Below are positions 24,044-31,657 of a stretch of DNA of 32,432 bases, in pieces. The DNA is from an uncultured Candidatus Saccharibacteria bacterium (GTDB lineage: Bacteria > Patescibacteriota > Minisyncoccia > Phycocordibacterales > Phycocordibacteraceae): contig CAYQJR010000003.1 in NCBI GenBank assembly GCA_964418065.1, forward strand, positions 1 to 32,432. The letters run 5' to 3'. Each line of letters begins with the position of its first letter. Position 1 is the first letter of the stretch. Both the position numbers and the translations under genes were made by a program. Below the pieces are notes generated by a model. That model worked only from the letters and a program-made list of their open reading frames with translations. It made no database searches and was not told the origin of the DNA.

Positions 24044-25294
24044 CTACCGGAATTTCAGTTTACGAGCGGCGAAGACCGTCATCTTCAGGAGGAGCCAACC
24101 GTGCTTCCATCGGCTGATGTTGGTCGTGCCGTAGACTCTGTCGCGGTAGTGCACCGGCACTTCTACAATCTTCAGGTTCAGCTTCGCCGCGCCGAAGAGA
24201 AGGTCGAAGTCGCCGAACGGGTCGAAGTCGCCGAAGAACGCGCGGTGCTTCTTAATATTCTCGTAGTCCTTCTTCCAGATTACTTTTGTCCCGCAGAGCG
24301 TGTCCTTGAGCGGCTGGCCGAGGATGGCACTGAAGGCGAAGCTGAAGAACTTGTTCCCGAAGAAGTTCAGTAGGCGCATAGCACCTTTCTCCACCGGATA
24401 GACCAATCGCGAACCGTTGATGAAGTCGCCGCGGTTCAGAGTGATTGCACGGTAGAATTTCTCCATCTCCTCCGGCGGCACGGTCATATCGGCATCAAAG
24501 ATGGTGAGAATGTCTCCTGTCGCCATATCAAAGCCCTTGCGCACCGCATCTCCCTTGCCCTTGCCGCTCTGCACCGCTACTTGAATCCGCTTATTGCCTT
24601 GATACGCCCCCTTGACCCGCTCCATTTCTGCAAGCGTGTTGTCGGTTGAGTGCCCCTCAATAAAGATAATCTCCGTAAACGCCCCGAGCTCCGGCAACTC
24701 CTTCACAATCCGCTCTATGGTCCCCGCCTCGTTTCGCGCGGGAACAACGATGGAGAGTGACGGTTTCGTGTTGGCCTTTTGTTCCGGGAGGGGACGAGCG
24801 ACCGCGTAGTGGATAAGACAGAGGTACGAGAACGGCCACAAATTCGCAAGAACGCTATTGAAGAAGGCGGAGACGAGCGGTACATACTTCGGGAACAGCA
24901 TCTTCCCCCCTGACTTCACGACCTCAAACCCGGCGAGGTGGAGGAAGTTCCGCAAATCATGAGGGGATATCCAGTTCTGCTCCACGGACGGGGAACGCAG
25001 TCCAAGCCACGATGCGAGGCGCAAAATAGGTTCCCAGAGCGTACTGTACTGGGTGATGACGATACGCCCATCCGGTAAGAGACGCGCACGCGCCGCCCCG
25101 AGGAAACTTTCAATGTCGTACACATGTCCAAGAATGTCCGTTGCGACAATATAATCAAACTCTTCTTTCGTCTTTCCGAAATCCATATGCGGATCATCAA
25201 CGACCAGGGTGCGCGCTCCCTCGGGGACGATAAAACGCACCAGGGATTCAACATAGCGGTGATAAAAATTCCCTATTTTCTTGCCTGCTTGCAT
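24044..25294 (-). CDS. GT2 glycosyltransferase with a remnant N-terminal methyltransferase-like domain
   Basis: C-terminal half has SIVVPARNEAG, EGHSTD, GKGDAV, DADMT, DTLCGTK. N-terminal half has FDYIV..D, L.PDGR but no GxGxG. Confidence 0.88.
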   Translation of the reverse strand: MQAGKKIGNFYHRYVESLVRFIVPEGARTLVVDDPHMDFGKTKEEFDYIVATDILGHVYDIESFLGAARARLLPDGRIVITQYSTLWEPILRLASWLGLRSPSVEQNWISPHDLRNFLHLAGFEVVKSGGKMLFPKYVPLVSAFFNSVLANLWPFSYLCLIHYAVARPLPEQKANTKPSLSIVVPARNEAGTIERIVKELPELGAFTEIIFIEGHSTDNTLAEMERVKGAYQGNKRIQVAVQSGKGKGDAVRKGFDMATGDILTIFDADMTVPPEEMEKFYRAITLNRGDFINGSRLVYPVEKGAMRLLNFFGNKFFSFAFSAILGQPLKDTLCGTKVIWKKDYENIKKHRAFFGDFDPFGDFDLLFGAAKLNLKIVEVPVHYRDRVYGTTNISRWKHGWLLLKMTVFAARKLKFR

Positions 25295-26922
25295 GTGTAT
25301 ATCGTGCTGATTATGACGCCTGACTGAGTCTGGAACAGACTATCACACTTCTCGAAATAACGGCTATAAAATCCGTCATAGAGGGGCGGAATGCCCACCA
25401 CGAGGAACTGCCCGTCGTAGCTGGCGAAGAGCTGCTCATGCCCCGCCTCAAAGGCCGGTACGGCATAGAATCGCCCTGCATACTTCCCCATCTTTGAGAG
25501 TTCGTACGCGCCCACGTCGTTGTAGGTGATTATCTTCTCTACGGCGCTTGACTCTTCAATAAAGGAGAGGGATGCGGCAAGCGCCGTCGGCGCGCTCCCA
25601 TGTATCTTCCCGAACGAGAACTCCTCAAAGAAGAGCGCGTTGTACGAGAGGCCCGCAAGCAGGACGACGACCAGGACCCCTTGTCGCCAGCGCGGTACGA
25701 AGAACCCTATACCTACGGCAACAAAAGAAATGAGGAATCCGAGGAAAATAGGGAGGAAGGAGACATAGAACCCAAGCGGTCCCGAACCGCCGTTAAAGGG
25801 AGTGAGGACATTCAATTGGCCGTGAAGCACGGAGAGAAACCACGCGGACTTCGGATAGAGTGGGACGACCGTCTGTGAGACGAATGCGCCGCATAGAATA
25901 ACGGCGGCAGATACAATGCCTGCGCCAAACCAGAAGCGGGATAGAGAATACGATTTCATCCAGTGCGACAGTACTGCGCCCGAGAGGACACAGAGCGGAA
26001 TAATCGTGAACATGAGGTACTTGTCGAGCGCCCCACGCGAGAAGTCAAAGAGGATGAAATAGAAAATGAGACCGAGAATAAGATAGAGGACGAAGATGCG
26101 CGTCTTCTGGAGAATATCGCGAGAGAGGAAGACGAGCGGGACGAGAAGAAGCGGCGACAGATAATAGAGCGCTTTCACTGACTGCACGAGTACTTGCATA
26201 TAATTCCGGTCGGCGAAATGTATATAGGCGCGCGCATGCTCTATCATTCCTCCGAATTGAAATACGGGGTTGACGAGTCGTATACCGATGAATCCTAACG
26301 CCAGGAGAAAACCGAGTCCGAGGAGCCCTGCGCCCAGCAGCTTCAGATGCCGAAGTTGTATGAATTGACGGCGCTCAATCAAGAAATCCGCACATAGCGC
26401 ACCGAGTACGAGTACGAAACTCAATTTGACCATGAGACCGGTGACAAGCGTGAGCCCGAGGAGTCCGGCCCAAAGGATTTTCCGGGTCGGGTGCTCCCGG
26501 AGGCGGTCGTAACAGTACACTGCCGCCAGAAAGAGCGTCGGGAGAATTGCACCATCGGTGTCCACCATAAGCGACGCCCACACCCCATAAAAAGAGACCG
26601 CATAGAGCCCGACTGACCATAGCGCCGCGCTCTCATCAAACCTCCTGCGGACAACAAGGAAAAGCAGAGCGAAAGAAAACAGCCCGAAGATAAGGGGAAG
26701 TACCCGCATATTCTCTCCGCCAAATACAACCGCGTCCGTCCTGAATAAGAGCGCAGTCAAGGGCGGGTGGGTGAGAAAGGCGCTGGCGGCAGCAAGACTG
26801 GTCTCTGAAGCGACAACCGTCTTGAATTCGTCTTGATAGTAGGAGAGGTACAGCCCGGGGATACGTAGGAGAAGAAACAGCGCAAGAGTGCTTATCAACA
26901 GCGCTCTGGTCGCAGTGTTCAT
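25273..26922 (-). CDS. GT-C fold membrane glycosyltransferase (ArnT/PMT-like)
   Basis: Start MNTAT (ATGA overlap with gtrA). YYQDE then HPPL, many TM helices and a soluble tail. Confidence 0.82.
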   Translation of the reverse strand: MNTATRALLISTLALFLLLRIPGLYLSYYQDEFKTVVASETSLAAASAFLTHPPLTALLFRTDAVVFGGENMRVLPLIFGLFSFALLFLVVRRRFDESAALWSVGLYAVSFYGVWASLMVDTDGAILPTLFLAAVYCYDRLREHPTRKILWAGLLGLTLVTGLMVKLSFVLVLGALCADFLIERRQFIQLRHLKLLGAGLLGLGFLLALGFIGIRLVNPVFQFGGMIEHARAYIHFADRNYMQVLVQSVKALYYLSPLLLVPLVFLSRDILQKTRIFVLYLILGLIFYFILFDFSRGALDKYLMFTIIPLCVLSGAVLSHWMKSYSLSRFWFGAGIVSAAVILCGAFVSQTVVPLYPKSAWFLSVLHGQLNVLTPFNGGSGPLGFYVSFLPIFLGFLISFVAVGIGFFVPRWRQGVLVVVLLAGLSYNALFFEEFSFGKIHGSAPTALAASLSFIEESSAVEKIITYNDVGAYELSKMGKYAGRFYAVPAFEAGHEQLFASYDGQFLVVGIPPLYDGFYSRYFEKCDSLFQTQSGVIISTIYTCKQARK

Positions 26923-27356
26923 ACCGATTCGGAACGAAAAACAAACCGCTGATAGATGAAGAAGCTCCCGCATGCAATGAGCAGGCTTGCGATAATCTGG
27001 GCTACGAGATAATGGAGACCGACCACCTCAACGCCGAAATAGACAATGAGCGTGTTAAGGCAGAGGTTGGTAACCGAAATGAGGAAGTAGAGGCCCATTT
27101 GAGAATGTATGCCCGCACGCTCGCGATCGCGGAATGTCCAGAATTTCTGCAAGGTGAAACTCACAAGAAAAGCGAGGATGAAAGCGAATACCGATGAGAG
27201 CAAATACCATATGCCAAGGATGTCGGTGAACAGATAGAGGAGCGCGAGGTCAACACTGACGGCAATACCGCCTGAAATCAAAAAGCGCAGGACCTTTGTA
27301 TGCGTGGGGTATCGCTCATCAAGCGATGCGTAGGTGTTTTTGATGTTGTGTATCAT
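26919..27356 (-). CDS. gtrA: GtrA-family putative lipid-linked sugar translocase
   Basis: 145 aa, 4 TM helices, RFLISG, KFWTF, RFVF. Confidence 0.88.
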   Translation of the reverse strand: MIHNIKNTYASLDERYPTHTKVLRFLISGGIAVSVDLALLYLFTDILGIWYLLSSVFAFILAFLVSFTLQKFWTFRDRERAGIHSQMGLYFLISVTNLCLNTLIVYFGVEVVGLHYLVAQIIASLLIACGSFFIYQRFVFRSESV

Positions 27357-28414
27357 GAGGAGGAGTCTATTTCGCGGGAGAGCGCGGTCGCAAGTGCGGT
27401 AAGGGCATTGTGAGCTACGAGTGTCTTAAGTTTCTGAGATATGATATCACGCCTGTCGGGCGGCATCGCGAGAAATGTCTTGAGGCGAGCAGCAAGCTCC
27501 TGTGCTTCAGAAAATGCGGCTTCTCGCCCTAGAGCATCTGCGAAGTCCTCGCTTGCCGCGAGGACGAGACATCCTGAGGCCGCCGCCTCAAAGAGCGTTT
27601 TATCAAGCATGCCGGAGGGAGAAGTATTCACGAAGATATCATGCGCGCGATAGAGGTCGGGAGTCTGGTTCTGCGGAACGCCGGGCACGAATGAGATGCG
27701 GTCTAGAAGCGTGCGGGCTCTCTCCTTGATTCCCCGATAATACCTTTCATCTTGCGGGAGCGGCGAACCGACGAAAGTTGCGGTGAAATCAACATTCGTT
27801 CCTGCAAGTTCCGTAAGGGCGTCAAGAAGCATCTCGGGGCGCTTGCTCGGCGCCATTCGCGCGAGAAACAGGATTGAGTGCGGTGCGCGCGCGACCCGCG
27901 TATCAGGGGAGAACCGCTCCGTGTTAACGCCCACGGGCATGAGAACTGTCTTTCTGTACCGTGCCGTGTAGGAGTGCTTTGAGGTGCAGAAAATCTTGTT
28001 GCAGAAGAGGCTAGCCATATCTGTTAAGAGCGAGCCCGCATAGTGATTGCGCCAGAGGTACACTCGCTTGCCGAGCAACCTCCAGAACCAACCGGCAAGA
28101 AGAACGTACTCTTGGTTCATATGCACGAAGACGGCATCGTACTCGTCTCGCAGTTTCCAGACAAGCGAGAGAAATCGCCATGCGTATCGTACACGGCGAA
28201 AAACACTATCATATATGATAGTGTTTTCCGCCGCGATGCGTTCCTTGCCGAGCGAATGCACGCGTACATTCGCCGGGAGCGCGTGCTTCCCTTCTCGGAG
28301 GCAAATAACTTCAATTCGCTCAACATGCTTCGCGAACTCTTCTATCCAACGCACGAAGAACCCGAGGACTGGGTCCTCTGTATCAACCGCTTGCGTAACA
28401 ATAAGGAGTCTCAT
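27353..28414 (-). CDS. Glycosyltransferase family 4 carrying an in-frame palindromic segment
   Basis: GVNTERF, LFLARMAPSK, FVNTSPSGMLDKTLFEAAASG. Confidence 0.9.
   Translation of the reverse strand: MRLLIVTQAVDTEDPVLGFFVRWIEEFAKHVERIEVICLREGKHALPANVRVHSLGKERIAAENTIIYDSVFRRVRYAWRFLSLVWKLRDEYDAVFVHMNQEYVLLAGWFWRLLGKRVYLWRNHYAGSLLTDMASLFCNKIFCTSKHSYTARYRKTVLMPVGVNTERFSPDTRVARAPHSILFLARMAPSKRPEMLLDALTELAGTNVDFTATFVGSPLPQDERYYRGIKERARTLLDRISFVPGVPQNQTPDLYRAHDIFVNTSPSGMLDKTLFEAAASGCLVLAASEDFADALGREAAFSEAQELAARLKTFLAMPPDRRDIISQKLKTLVAHNALTALATALSREIDSSS
28194..28233. repeat. 40-bp palindrome with one mismatch and a 28-bp perfect core
   Basis: CGGCGAAAAACACTATCATATATGATAGTGTTTTCCGCCG. Perfect from 28200 to 28227; the single mismatch is 28199/28228. 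Confidence 0.97.
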
Positions 28415-29538
28415 GCAAACCTTGCGAGATCCTCGGCGATACGACTTGGAATATCTCCTGCCGCGGCGAGATGCGCGCGAGCGGTCTCTTCGGCGTGACG
28501 CGGGAGCTCCTGCCGCACGGAATTATCTTCAATGAATCCTACAATGGCGAGCGAGAGCGCGGTTGGATCGGCAACAGGGACTGACAATATATCCTCATAT
28601 CCCTTGAATACTTCGCCGACGATACCGACATCGGTAGTGATGAGCGGGACTCGGGCAAGCGCCGCTTCTATGAGGGTGCGCCCGTACCCTTCGTACGCGC
28701 TCGCCTGGATAACCGCCTGCGCGCTCCGCATAAGGCCCCACGCATCGGGGCGGGACCCCAAGAAAATGACCTGCTTCTCAAGACCAAATGAGCGGGTCAT
28801 TCTCTCGAGCCGTCCGCGCTCGCTGCCATCTCCGACGATGAAAAGTCCGACCATCGGGTAGTGCGCCACAACGAGTTTGAGTGCCGCAAGAATGTCTTCT
28901 ATGCGCTTCTCGGGCTCTAATCGCCCAACGGTGATGAGTGCGAAGGTGAAGGGGTGATTGGGTAGTCGCACAGCTTCAGGCACGACCGGGCTGACCGGCA
29001 CCGGGATGACCGCTGGCTCCGCGATAGATGAGCCGTAACGAGCGAGAAGCGATGCTTTCACGCGCTCCGATACAACACGGATACCCTGCGCCATCGGCAG
29101 GACGCGCTCGGCAATCCCGCGGCGCCAGCGATTAAGAAAGGGCATCCGAACCTGCGGCGAGCGCCAATTGCCACTCTTCACAAACCACGGAGAGAGGAAG
29201 TCCGTGTGCACCTGGATATGCAATTTCGCGTTTGTGCCTTGTACCGCGCGGAGGGCGGCGAGTCCGTGCTCAAAGGGATCCTGGGCCGATACGACCTCAA
29301 TACCGTACTCCTGGATAAGCGCGTTCGCGCGCGCAGCGAGCGCGCGAACGCGGAAAAGCTTCCATGCATACACGGGGTGGAGATACAGATTCCCGTCTTG
29401 TTCGTCGCGTACTCCAAAATCAGCAGAGGAGACGATATGGAGCTCGCCTATCGTAGCGGCGTAGGCGCGCATACGCTCACGAGCGGCGCTTGCTGTATCA
29501 AATATCGTCGGGTCGTTGGAGACAAAAAGTACTTTCAT
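28411..29538 (-). CDS. Glycosyltransferase family 4
   Basis: VGRLEPEK, VGDG, SAYEGYGRTLIEA (Ex7E), TTDVG. Confidence 0.92.
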   Translation of the reverse strand: MKVLFVSNDPTIFDTASAARERMRAYAATIGELHIVSSADFGVRDEQDGNLYLHPVYAWKLFRVRALAARANALIQEYGIEVVSAQDPFEHGLAALRAVQGTNAKLHIQVHTDFLSPWFVKSGNWRSPQVRMPFLNRWRRGIAERVLPMAQGIRVVSERVKASLLARYGSSIAEPAVIPVPVSPVVPEAVRLPNHPFTFALITVGRLEPEKRIEDILAALKLVVAHYPMVGLFIVGDGSERGRLERMTRSFGLEKQVIFLGSRPDAWGLMRSAQAVIQASAYEGYGRTLIEAALARVPLITTDVGIVGEVFKGYEDILSVPVADPTALSLAIVGFIEDNSVRQELPRHAEETARAHLAAAGDIPSRIAEDLARFA

Positions 29539-30542
29539 AATGAGGTGAGGAGTCGTGCAGTCGCGTCAAGCATCTGCAGCAGCGAGAAGTTGCTCGTGCG
29601 CTTCAGTGCGGCGAGAGCACGCTCCCGCGCGGCGGTGCGATTCTCTGCCACTGTCGTGAGGGCCTGCCGAAGAGAAGCGTCGTCCCCTGGAGGTACGAGA
29701 AGGCCGGTCTCTCCTTGTGTAACGAGCTCTCCGTTTCCACCTGCGCTCGTCGCAATAACCGGCGTTCCAAGTGCCATTGCTTCAATAAGCACATGAGAGA
29801 GACCTTCATAGTGCGAGTTGAGAACGAAAACGTCAGCCGCCTTTATCCAACCGAGCGCTTCAACACGCGGAAGTCCGGAAGCTATGAACACGCGCCAATT
29901 CGCGTGCTCCTGTGCTATGCGTTCAATTGCTTCAAATCCTTTCCAAGGAACGCGCCTGCCGGCAGACACGATAAGAAACTCTCCCTCTTTCTTCTGGTGT
30001 ACGGACAGATGCGCGGGGAGTTCAATCGCATTATAAATCACGGAAATCTTCTCGCCCGAGATGCCCCACGCCGTCACGATAGTCTTTAGATATTCGCTCG
30101 GCACAATGACGCGCACGGCGCTTCGTGCGACGAGCGTCTGGACTCTTTGCAGTCTGCGTACGAAGAAAGATCTTTGCGGCGTGCGCACGAACTCGTCCAG
30201 ACTCTGCGTGACGCCGAACCGTTGTCTGCCCTGTTCCCACGCGTAGTCGCCAACTATCTTCACGAGAAAAGGTTTGTGTAATATCCGCGCTGCCCACATA
30301 GCTGGATACCCGACCGATACGGGATCAAGGGCAAGAATCGCATCAGTCCCTATGGCATTCCAAAACACACGCAAGAAATATAGGAGGTGACGGATAAACT
30401 TCGGGAAATGACGAACATCGCTGAATTTCACCAATTCAACCTCAATGCCCTTTCCCGGCAATCCCTCCTCCAGAAGCCTGGAATAGGTCGCCGGACCGCC
30501 TATGTCAGGCGGGTACAGAGGAGTCGCAATGACGAGCTTCAT
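29535..30542 (-). CDS. Glycosyltransferase family 4
   Basis: YPPDIGG, GRRVPWKG, SHYEGLSHVLIEAM (Ex7E), GGNGE...GETGLLV. Confidence 0.92.
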   Translation of the reverse strand: MKLVIATPLYPPDIGGPATYSRLLEEGLPGKGIEVELVKFSDVRHFPKFIRHLLYFLRVFWNAIGTDAILALDPVSVGYPAMWAARILHKPFLVKIVGDYAWEQGRQRFGVTQSLDEFVRTPQRSFFVRRLQRVQTLVARSAVRVIVPSEYLKTIVTAWGISGEKISVIYNAIELPAHLSVHQKKEGEFLIVSAGRRVPWKGFEAIERIAQEHANWRVFIASGLPRVEALGWIKAADVFVLNSHYEGLSHVLIEAMALGTPVIATSAGGNGELVTQGETGLLVPPGDDASLRQALTTVAENRTAARERALAALKRTSNFSLLQMLDATARLLTSL

Positions 30543-31657
30543 ACGCCTATTCTAGCGAATATATCGCGCATCTGCTTGGCGATGAGATTCCAGTCATATT
30601 TCTCCGTCACCATACGCTTGGCGTTCGCGGTCACCCGCGCGGCTTGTGCCGGATGCGCGAGGATATCCCTTACCGCCTCGGCTATCTGCTCGGGAGAGTC
30701 CTTGTCTACCGCCCAACCGGTTGGCTCCTTATCAGGGTTACGCTTCGCATCAAAGAGAAAGTCAACAATACCGCCCTCTTGGGTTGCAATGACAGGCAGT
30801 CCTGCCGCCATCGCCTCCATAAATGAAATCCCGAATCCTTCAGTGCGCGACGGACGGATGAATATGTCGGCAGCGTGAAGATATGTCGGCATCACGCTGC
30901 GGTCTATATGGCCGAGAAATTCAACGCGGTCTTGTACGCCGCATCTTCGTGCGAGCTCTTTGAGCACTGGCTCCTCGGGTCCGCTACCGAGCACCTGGAA
31001 CCGCACCTCGGGAAGAAGCGCGAGTGCCCGTATGACATCATCGATTGCATTCTTAGATACGAGACGCGAGGTGGTAATCAAGGTCGTCTGCTCGTGTGGA
31101 GTAGGCACACCGGAGAACTCTTGTATCGAGACACCGTTTGGCACAATCTCTATTGGCCCAGTAAACCGACGGCTACGTGCCCAACGAGCAAGATAATTGG
31201 AGAGCGGGAGTATGATGGCAGCTCGGGTAAATGCACGCGTGAAAAGCGGCCAGAGAGGAACCATTGTGCGTTCAATGTGTGGTATCGGATCCCCTTCTTG
31301 GAGACTCAAGGCATACGGCACATCTGGGTGGAAAAGGTTGAAGAACGCCGCAGGCACTCCTGCTGAGTGCGCCATCATCGCCCATATCGCATCGAATTTC
31401 TTCATTCTGTATAATCTCCATGCGACATGAGCTGCACCGAATTGAAACAGAAATTTGTCTAATTTCCCACTGCCATTTCCAATTCGATGCACCATTATGT
31501 TGCCTATTCTTTCCTCACGCTTATCTGTGTTGGAGAAACGAAGCGTCACCAAGTGAAATTCTATATCGCGTATGCGGTCGGTCACTTCCTTGATGGCGAC
31601 CTCCGCCCCGCCCACATGCGGATAGTAGGCGAGCGAAAAAATGAGCACCCGTTTCAT
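30539..31657 (-). CDS. Glycosyltransferase family 4
   Basis: YYPHVGGAE, PNGV, SRLVSKN, PSRTEGFGISFMEAM (Ex7E). Confidence 0.93.
   Translation of the reverse strand: MKRVLIFSLAYYPHVGGAEVAIKEVTDRIRDIEFHLVTLRFSNTDKREERIGNIMVHRIGNGSGKLDKFLFQFGAAHVAWRLYRMKKFDAIWAMMAHSAGVPAAFFNLFHPDVPYALSLQEGDPIPHIERTMVPLWPLFTRAFTRAAIILPLSNYLARWARSRRFTGPIEIVPNGVSIQEFSGVPTPHEQTTLITTSRLVSKNAIDDVIRALALLPEVRFQVLGSGPEEPVLKELARRCGVQDRVEFLGHIDRSVMPTYLHAADIFIRPSRTEGFGISFMEAMAAGLPVIATQEGGIVDFLFDAKRNPDKEPTGWAVDKDSPEQIAEAVRDILAHPAQAARVTANAKRMVTEKYDWNLIAKQMRDIFARIGV

Follow-up and report, generated by a model that had tools for sequence, protein, structure and literature searches.

A 40-bp palindrome lying in frame within a glycosyltransferase gene of the window, the 32,432-nucleotide stretch of DNA analyzed here, is probably (we would put the odds at about 0.6) an orphan, REP-like copy of the putative binding palindrome of a YerC/HisR-type regulator that is tolerated in a coding loop. 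This reading rests on sequence comparisons with related genomes, in which the same palindrome brackets the gene for a helix-turn-helix protein of the TrpR/YerC (HisR) family. The usual unit of about 26–30 bp, AAAACACTAYCATATATGRTAGTGTTTT with core ACTWYCATATATGRWAGT, is a short dispersed palindromic repeat, and it has spread in one Parcubacteria-type genus and, with other cores, in related genera.

To our knowledge, hardly any pairing of a regulator with its site has been described for ultra-small candidate-phyla bacteria. In the present case the sequence flanking the regulator gene itself reveals the site, and a single purified protein with a 28-mer would suffice to test the pairing. The puzzle is that a repressor-type palindrome has been copied into coding loops of glycosyltransferases, Mur ligases, tRNA synthetases, primase, and UvrB, and that it stays perfect in genomes seemingly without the protein.

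A near-perfect palindrome in frame within a glycosyltransferase gene

The palindrome occupies positions 28194–28233 (CGGCGAAAAACACTATCATATATGATAGTGTTTTCCGCCG) and its arms are 95% complementary, the sole mismatch being that of 28199 (A) with 28228 (C), as the earlier note had described from the letters alone. Nested within it are a perfect 28-bp unit of the form AAAAC-core-GTTTT (28200–28227), the same as the copy upstream of a YerC-like gene at congener locus L127/L177, and the 20-bp core CACTATCATATATGATAGTG (28204–28223), which is single in the window (0 expected from 100 shuffles) and which flanks YerC-like regulator genes at loci L177, L228, L230, and L241. In minus-strand RNA the mismatch becomes U·G, and the region folds into an uninterrupted run of 20 pairs (−35.5 kcal/mol; z −5.9; 0 of 200 shuffles equal it), in line with the earlier note's view that the stem pairs fully. 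The weight that had been laid on this pair was not upheld: across 44 intragenic copies, sense-strand G·U and A·C mismatches number 37 and 39, and these equal counts do not point to selection at the RNA level. On this ground, selection for an mRNA hairpin was rejected. The outer stem that had been proposed between 28183–28189 and 28234–28240 is weak, having an extra mismatch and a one-sided 4-nt bulge and lying outside the minimum-energy fold.

The host gene (27353–28414, minus strand) encodes a 353-aa GT4-type (GT-B, Glycos_transf_1) glycosyltransferase, as judged from Pfam matches (Glycos_transf_1/Glyco_trans_1_4), a structural model, and its neighbors, which include two further GT4-type genes, a GtrA-like gene, and a PMT_2 gene. 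Within this ORF the palindrome codes for AENTIIYDSVFRR, and the peptide NTIIYDSVFRR also occurs in a plus-strand shadow ORF, as had been noticed before. The surrounding glycosylation cluster (25273–31657) is entirely on the minus strand and comprises a PMT_2-type membrane glycosyltransferase gene, the GtrA-like gene, three Pfam-confirmed GT4-type genes, and a 372-aa ORF as a putative fourth; several of the gene junctions are overlaps of 4 nt.

Alignment of 29 orthologous GT4 N-termini placed an in-frame insertion of about 30 nt at codons N64–R73 (28196–28225, minus strand; boundaries ± a few nt). The 10 residues, NTIIYDSVFR, are present in three orthologues, those of the window genome (G000), G013, and G068, and absent from the other 26; the G074 orthologue possibly holds a decayed copy. 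Where the three palindromes differ, a change in one arm has its counterpart in the other, and symmetry is thereby preserved (ACTATC/GATAGT, ACTACC/GGTAGT, and AGTACC/GGTACT). In the AlphaFold model (mean pLDDT 91.7), residues 59–68 are the sole segment below 50 and are situated between a strand (50–54) and a helix (71–87), and the insert thus sits in a loop, as the earlier note had guessed. The palindrome entered this gene in frame, as some 30 nt that lengthened a disordered loop by 10 residues. The suggested alignment with orthologues thus confirmed an insertion after the SLGKE region, and for annotation purposes the palindrome accounts for the 10-residue insert of this glycosyltransferase. 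The idea of in-frame insertion holds for this gene and fails for a copy in a MurC-type gene, which is without length change (see below).

A read check had also been proposed to exclude an assembly fold-back. A 6154-nt Logan contig from run X1 bridges the palindrome with 0 differences; X1 is probably the source sample, and this contig is therefore not independent evidence. An assembly artifact was rejected because the contig spans the site and because the same palindrome is found at the same codons in the GT4 orthologues of two other genomes. Palindromes of this kind should accordingly not be mistaken for fold-backs during annotation.

Copies elsewhere in the genome

The genome (555 kb in 36 contigs) holds four occurrences of the 20-bp core and none of its reversed control. 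Besides the copy in the GT4 gene, one with a single mismatch lies inside the MurC-type gene (C27:4611), one lies between convergent genes for peptidyl-tRNA hydrolase (pth) and an S1-domain protein (C19:2427), and one lies inside a 297-nt insertion of the 23S rRNA gene (C22:10622). At C19:2427 the palindrome carries on for 11 nt further on each side with a different sequence. No broken palindromes hinting at a lost cassette were found at the contig ends of this genome. A 100-base run of N (C1:8499–8598) gave spurious palindromes in the palindrome scan.

The insertion in the 23S rRNA gene (C22:10240–10870; L049:3245–3871, minus strand) is located near position 2620 of the Rfam LSU model and folds strongly (z −7.1), with the palindrome copy forming a local hairpin inside it. 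A group I intron was rejected, as no Rfam intron match was obtained at E values up to 10. Contig C22 ends within the 23S rRNA gene.

In MurC the palindrome replaces codons and leaves the length unchanged. It covers the same codons in 4 of 30 orthologues, which read DTIVYDSVS and similar, and the rest read SDxTIAESLA. With three more genomes added, palindromes are present in 7 of 33 MurC genes, which are scattered on a tree built with the palindrome columns masked. The seven fail to group together, which makes a single ancient gain unlikely; the tree fits repeated gain as well as repeated loss and does not distinguish between them.

Spread through the genus and beyond

Searches of relatives, as the earlier note had advised, recovered further copies both inside and between genes. 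With up to 2 mismatches allowed, the core was found in 9 of the 36 genomes sampled from this genus, whereas none of 24 other families of the order has it. A degenerate form, ANTNNCATATATGNNANT, is present in 58 of 222 genus genomes at 1–12 copies per genome, with 169 sites by hand count over the 222 genomes as against 11 for the reversed control. Together with the four copies in the window genome, these counts substantiate the option of a repeated element that the earlier note had raised. The window palindrome belongs to this CATATATG-centered family by its core ACTWYCATATATGRWAGT, its dyad symmetry, and its several copies per genome.

Intragenic hosts in congeners include PheT, DnaG, UvrB, an HhH-GPD glycosylase, a TrpRS-type synthetase, AlaRS, ArgRS, MurD, and Dus, as well as class-V aminotransferases, Obg, and a reverse transcriptase. 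Relative to the orthologues in the window genome, the number of added residues ranges from 0 to 18 (UvrB +16, AlaRS +18, Dus +7, ArgRS +5, HhH-GPD glycosylase +4/+5). No direct repeats indicative of target-site duplication were seen at nine inspected copies, and the added length, 0 to 54 nt, is not fixed at any value; a MITE was rejected for want of a target-site duplication or a defined length. Four congeners (L084, L105, L011, and L161) have an in-frame palindrome, encoding LPYM[VE][VA]F, that occupies a common position within an RVT_1 reverse-transcriptase gene of 350–400 aa, a gene with no orthologue in the window genome.

An alignment of 86 distinct copies (A3) was evaluated for covariation. 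Changes on both sides were observed for 16 of 18 arm pairs, and 77.3% of cells pair, compared with 61.5% after shuffling (0 of 500 shuffles reach the observed value) and 33–44% with slid partners; because rows had been picked for at least 4 of 6 inner pairs, the counts for these pairs are biased upward. Pairing reaches 15–20 nt from the center without sequence conservation. ORFs of at least 280 aa hold 44 of the 86 copies, and for 28 there is either no ORF or only a short one; copies outside ORFs have the longer perfect arms (median 15 vs 10).

The 12-mer ATGATATATCAT is present in 18 copies in G246, a genome of another genus. A regulator gene of the type described below is flanked by two of them, and the other 16 are orphans, which are alike over about 30 bp; 13 of the 16 are in short spacers. 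Nine orphans lie between tandem genes, four between convergent genes, one between divergent genes, and one inside an ORF, with one unclear. This pattern is that of a repeat family, unlike degenerate operators.

The palindrome brackets a TrpR-family regulator gene in related genomes

In three genomes, two palindromes about 470 bp apart enclose an ORF of 136–142 aa. The bracketed protein (135–142 aa) matches Pfam Trp_repressor (PF01371) with E values of 1e-12 to 1e-14 and the PDB structures 3FRW, 3KOR, and 3G1C; 3G1C is termed a HisR structure in PMC9413887. The 1291 relatives of the protein bear the source names trp operon repressor or YerC. A monomer model of the YerC-like protein has a pLDDT of 65.5, which is too low for fold comparison.

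Twenty-five such genes were found in 23 of the 222 genus genomes, and a palindrome stands beside the gene in all 23 loci shown. At most genus loci the upstream copy ends 3–10 nt before the ATG (right arm ...GGTAGTATT), and it overlaps a −10-like TAGTAT located 6–7 nt before the start codon. The downstream copy follows the stop codon by about 10–35 nt in nearly all 23 loci, often with long extra arms. The cores vary by genome (CCTCCATATATGGAGG, GCTACC..GGTAGC, CCCACC..GGTGGG, GTTCC..GGAAC) and the two flanks of one gene agree; the recognition-helix region of the regulator, TGAGYATIERIRRWL, is also variable. The bracketing palindromes thus co-vary between lineages while the two flanks stay alike. 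The usual neighbors of the gene are secA and obg, each in 13 of 23 loci, and other contexts are found in 10 of 23 genomes. The motif is present in 17 of the 23 gene-bearing genomes and in 41 of the 199 others (odds ratio 10.9, uncorrected for kinship).

A wider set of 80 loci was taken from genomes whose titles name Kaiserbacteria, Adlerbacteria, Nomurabacteria, or other groups, with an upstream site defined as a perfect palindrome with arms of at least 7. An upstream palindrome, which would place the site at the regulator's own promoter, is present at 64 of 79 loci, a downstream one at 68 of 79, and both at 57 of 78. The same central 12-mer is found on both sides at 53 of 78 loci and in 0 of 63 control windows. 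The shared center is GATATATC in 27 loci and CATATATG in 23, with others in 3.

The length of the core and its CAC/GTG ends equal those of HisR sites, and from this we infer that the palindrome is probably the operator of the bracketed protein. Binding is thus predicted, and the earlier suggestion of a dyad protein-binding site appears to be an apt one, given the bracketing of a TrpR/YerC-family gene in relatives and the 20-bp architecture that the palindrome shares with HisR operators. The scattered copies would then be REP-like orphan copies of the operator, presumably made by a copying process, and within coding regions they may survive only in the two open reading frames and in tolerant loops. 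That 44 of the 86 aligned copies are in long ORFs is odd for a plain operator. Also counting against it are arm complementarity 15–20 nt from the center, which exceeds the reach that would be expected of a TrpR-type dimer, and the combination of no target-site duplication, no fixed length, and a MurC copy without length change.

The regulator gene is missing from the assembly of the window genome

No PF01371 gene was detected in the 90% complete assembly of the window genome by protein search, by family search (E up to 10), or by tblastn with 23 orthologues. On contig C4 of this genome secA and obg are contiguous, with an unrelated 206-aa ORF without a Pfam match between them. This AT-rich stretch (C4:19703–20758; L281:1208–1828, minus strand) stands where 13 of 23 congeners have the YerC-like gene. 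The regulator gene was likewise not seen in 41 of the 58 motif-bearing genomes; profile searches of five motif-rich genomes gave no match; secA abuts obg in three of them, and a solo palindrome separates the two genes in one. Such a solo palindrome, without a regulator gene, is seen between secA and obg at locus L146 (G122:C4), at a distance of 85 nt from the start of obg; its appearance suggests an empty site or a deletion that joined two flanking copies. By hand count, copies in gene-less genomes (30 of 39) are no less symmetric than those in gene-bearing genomes (24 of 29).

Because the regulator is missing from the assembly, a local function for the GT4 copy is doubtful. With no partner gene assembled, this copy is most likely a tolerated passenger, perhaps a relic, rather than a working switch of the GT4 gene.

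Alternative explanations

The copies might nonetheless be working regulatory sites, with a regulator that is unassembled here binding inside GT4, MurC, and other housekeeping genes, where it would act as a transcriptional roadblock or tune downstream operon genes. Palindromes at the same codons in several species (three genomes for GT4, 7 of 33 for MurC) speak for such a role, as do the perfection in which they are kept and an enrichment of aminoacyl-tRNA synthetases and Mur ligases among the hosts, which would suit an amino-acid-sensing protein of the TrpR/HisR type. We nevertheless regard it as unlikely, since copies lie far from promoters (e.g., codon 266 of 423 in MurC and codon 470 of 564 in ArgRS), 4 of the 16 orphans in G246 are placed where two genes converge at their 3′ ends, an rRNA insertion holds one copy, many genomes have sites and no regulator, and copies are near-identical over about 30 bp within a genome, which is repeat-like and not what degenerate operators look like. 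It is similarly improbable that a hairpin or cruciform has a structural role of its own, as a terminator, an RNA-processing site, or a DNA hairpin, or that the palindrome is kept and extended by template-switch mutation, with the link to the regulator being secondary. The two-sided changes at 16 of 18 arm pairs and the excess of pairing over shuffled copies are consistent with this explanation, although the selection of alignment rows inflates the inner-pair counts; complementary outer arms without conservation, the longer arms outside ORFs, the terminator-like appearance of other long palindromes of the genome, and the persistence of copies in genomes without the regulator point the same way. 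On the sense strand, however, G·U mismatches are not in excess over A·C, and pure structure leaves unexplained both the invariant CATATATG center and the lineage-specific cores that match the flanked gene. A simple scan for a GC-rich stem followed by a T tract calls neither the GT4 nor the C19 copy, and an intrinsic terminator was rejected for the window palindrome on that basis.

A site for a tyrosine (Xer-type) or other recombinase is considerably less probable still. The 28-mer can be divided into 11-bp arms around a 6-bp ATATAT center, an 11-6-11 geometry that we take to resemble dif/pdif sites, and the bracketed gene would then be a dif-module-like cassette. A cassette that is present, absent, or reduced to a solo palindrome between secA and obg across genomes fits this idea, as does the placement of the gene in other contexts in 10 of 23 genomes, but the cargo is always the same regulator gene, a wholly symmetric center lacks polarity, and nothing seen here ties a recombinase to the sites. 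Still harder to credit is a chromosomal parS or other partition site, which the earlier note had listed among its options and for which the palindromic, multi-copy nature of the element and its tolerance in coding sequence could be cited. The canonical-like parS cluster stands elsewhere in this genome, with four sites (2–3 mismatches to the 16-bp consensus; up to 3 were allowed) within 900 bp at C5:5930–6825 and a single ParB_N gene on C18 (11110–11409), and on the closed 1-Mb chromosome of G017 the palindromes are dispersed, without clustering near an origin; parS was rejected on these grounds.

Comparison with known systems

Of the systems considered, the operators of HisR (B. subtilis YerC) and TrpR are closest in architecture. 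According to PMC9413887, regulators of this family bind 20-bp palindromes, the HisR consensus is cacTTTAnnnnnnTAAAgtg, and a site precedes roughly half of hisR genes. The window core shares the 20-bp palindromic form with CAC...GTG ends, and the sites in congeners share the location ahead of the regulator's own gene, which would imply autoregulation, and the lineage-specific consensus; the bracketed protein likewise matches PF01371 and the HisR-type structure 3G1C. The present system differs in a conserved C-terminal extension of about 35 aa in the protein, in a second copy that always follows the gene, in perfect palindromes of up to 54 bp, and in the many copies within genes, between convergent genes, in an rRNA insertion, or in regulator-less genomes. 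Literature searches found no description of this system of bracketed regulator and palindrome, and one of them turned up the HisR paper alone.

Rickettsia palindromic elements, to which the earlier note had compared the palindrome, are similar in being inserted in frame into unrelated housekeeping genes and in placing a peptide where it is tolerated (PMC10969869); they measure about 150 bp (100–150 bp across the RPE families), whereas the unit here is about 28–40 bp. The elements described here are also in another phylum and have a candidate cognate protein, and some of their copies replace codons.

The resemblance to bacterial REP/REPIN-RAYT systems extends to the overall arrangement. In those systems the cognate palindrome stands at both ends of a single-copy gene, copies are dispersed, the palindrome sequence is lineage-specific, and synteny is mostly conserved. 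Cognate bracketing, dispersal, specificity to the gene lineage, and mostly conserved synteny are all seen here. The bracketed gene, however, encodes a TrpR-fold DNA binder (PF01371) and not a Y1 HUH transposase, the copies number 1–12 per genome (18 in G246) rather than tens to hundreds, half of those in this genus are intragenic rather than extragenic, and the repeats are fully symmetric. Y1_Tnp genes occur in 116 of the 222 genus genomes in up to 11 copies, and none was found in the window genome. All eight that were inspected (loci L272–L279 in G017, G010, G185, G199, and G246; about 210–260 aa) are bracketed by 21–45-bp palindromes of their own, so that the classical arrangement exists side by side with the TrpR-fold one. 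Y1_Tnp genes are associated with the motif, being present in 47 of the 58 genomes that have it and in 69 of the 164 without it, but no direct link between these genes and the palindrome was found; Y1 transposases as mobilizers were rejected because each inspected gene has its own, different palindrome and the window genome has none of these genes.

It is conceivable, though we offer it only tentatively, that these Parcubacteria possess a second system of the REPIN-RAYT kind, in which the bracketed single-copy gene encodes a TrpR/YerC-fold protein and the sites multiply, even in frame within essential genes and in an rRNA insertion, and outlive the loss of the gene, perhaps because genomes with very few regulators use them as protein-dependent roadblocks or gene-end insulators.
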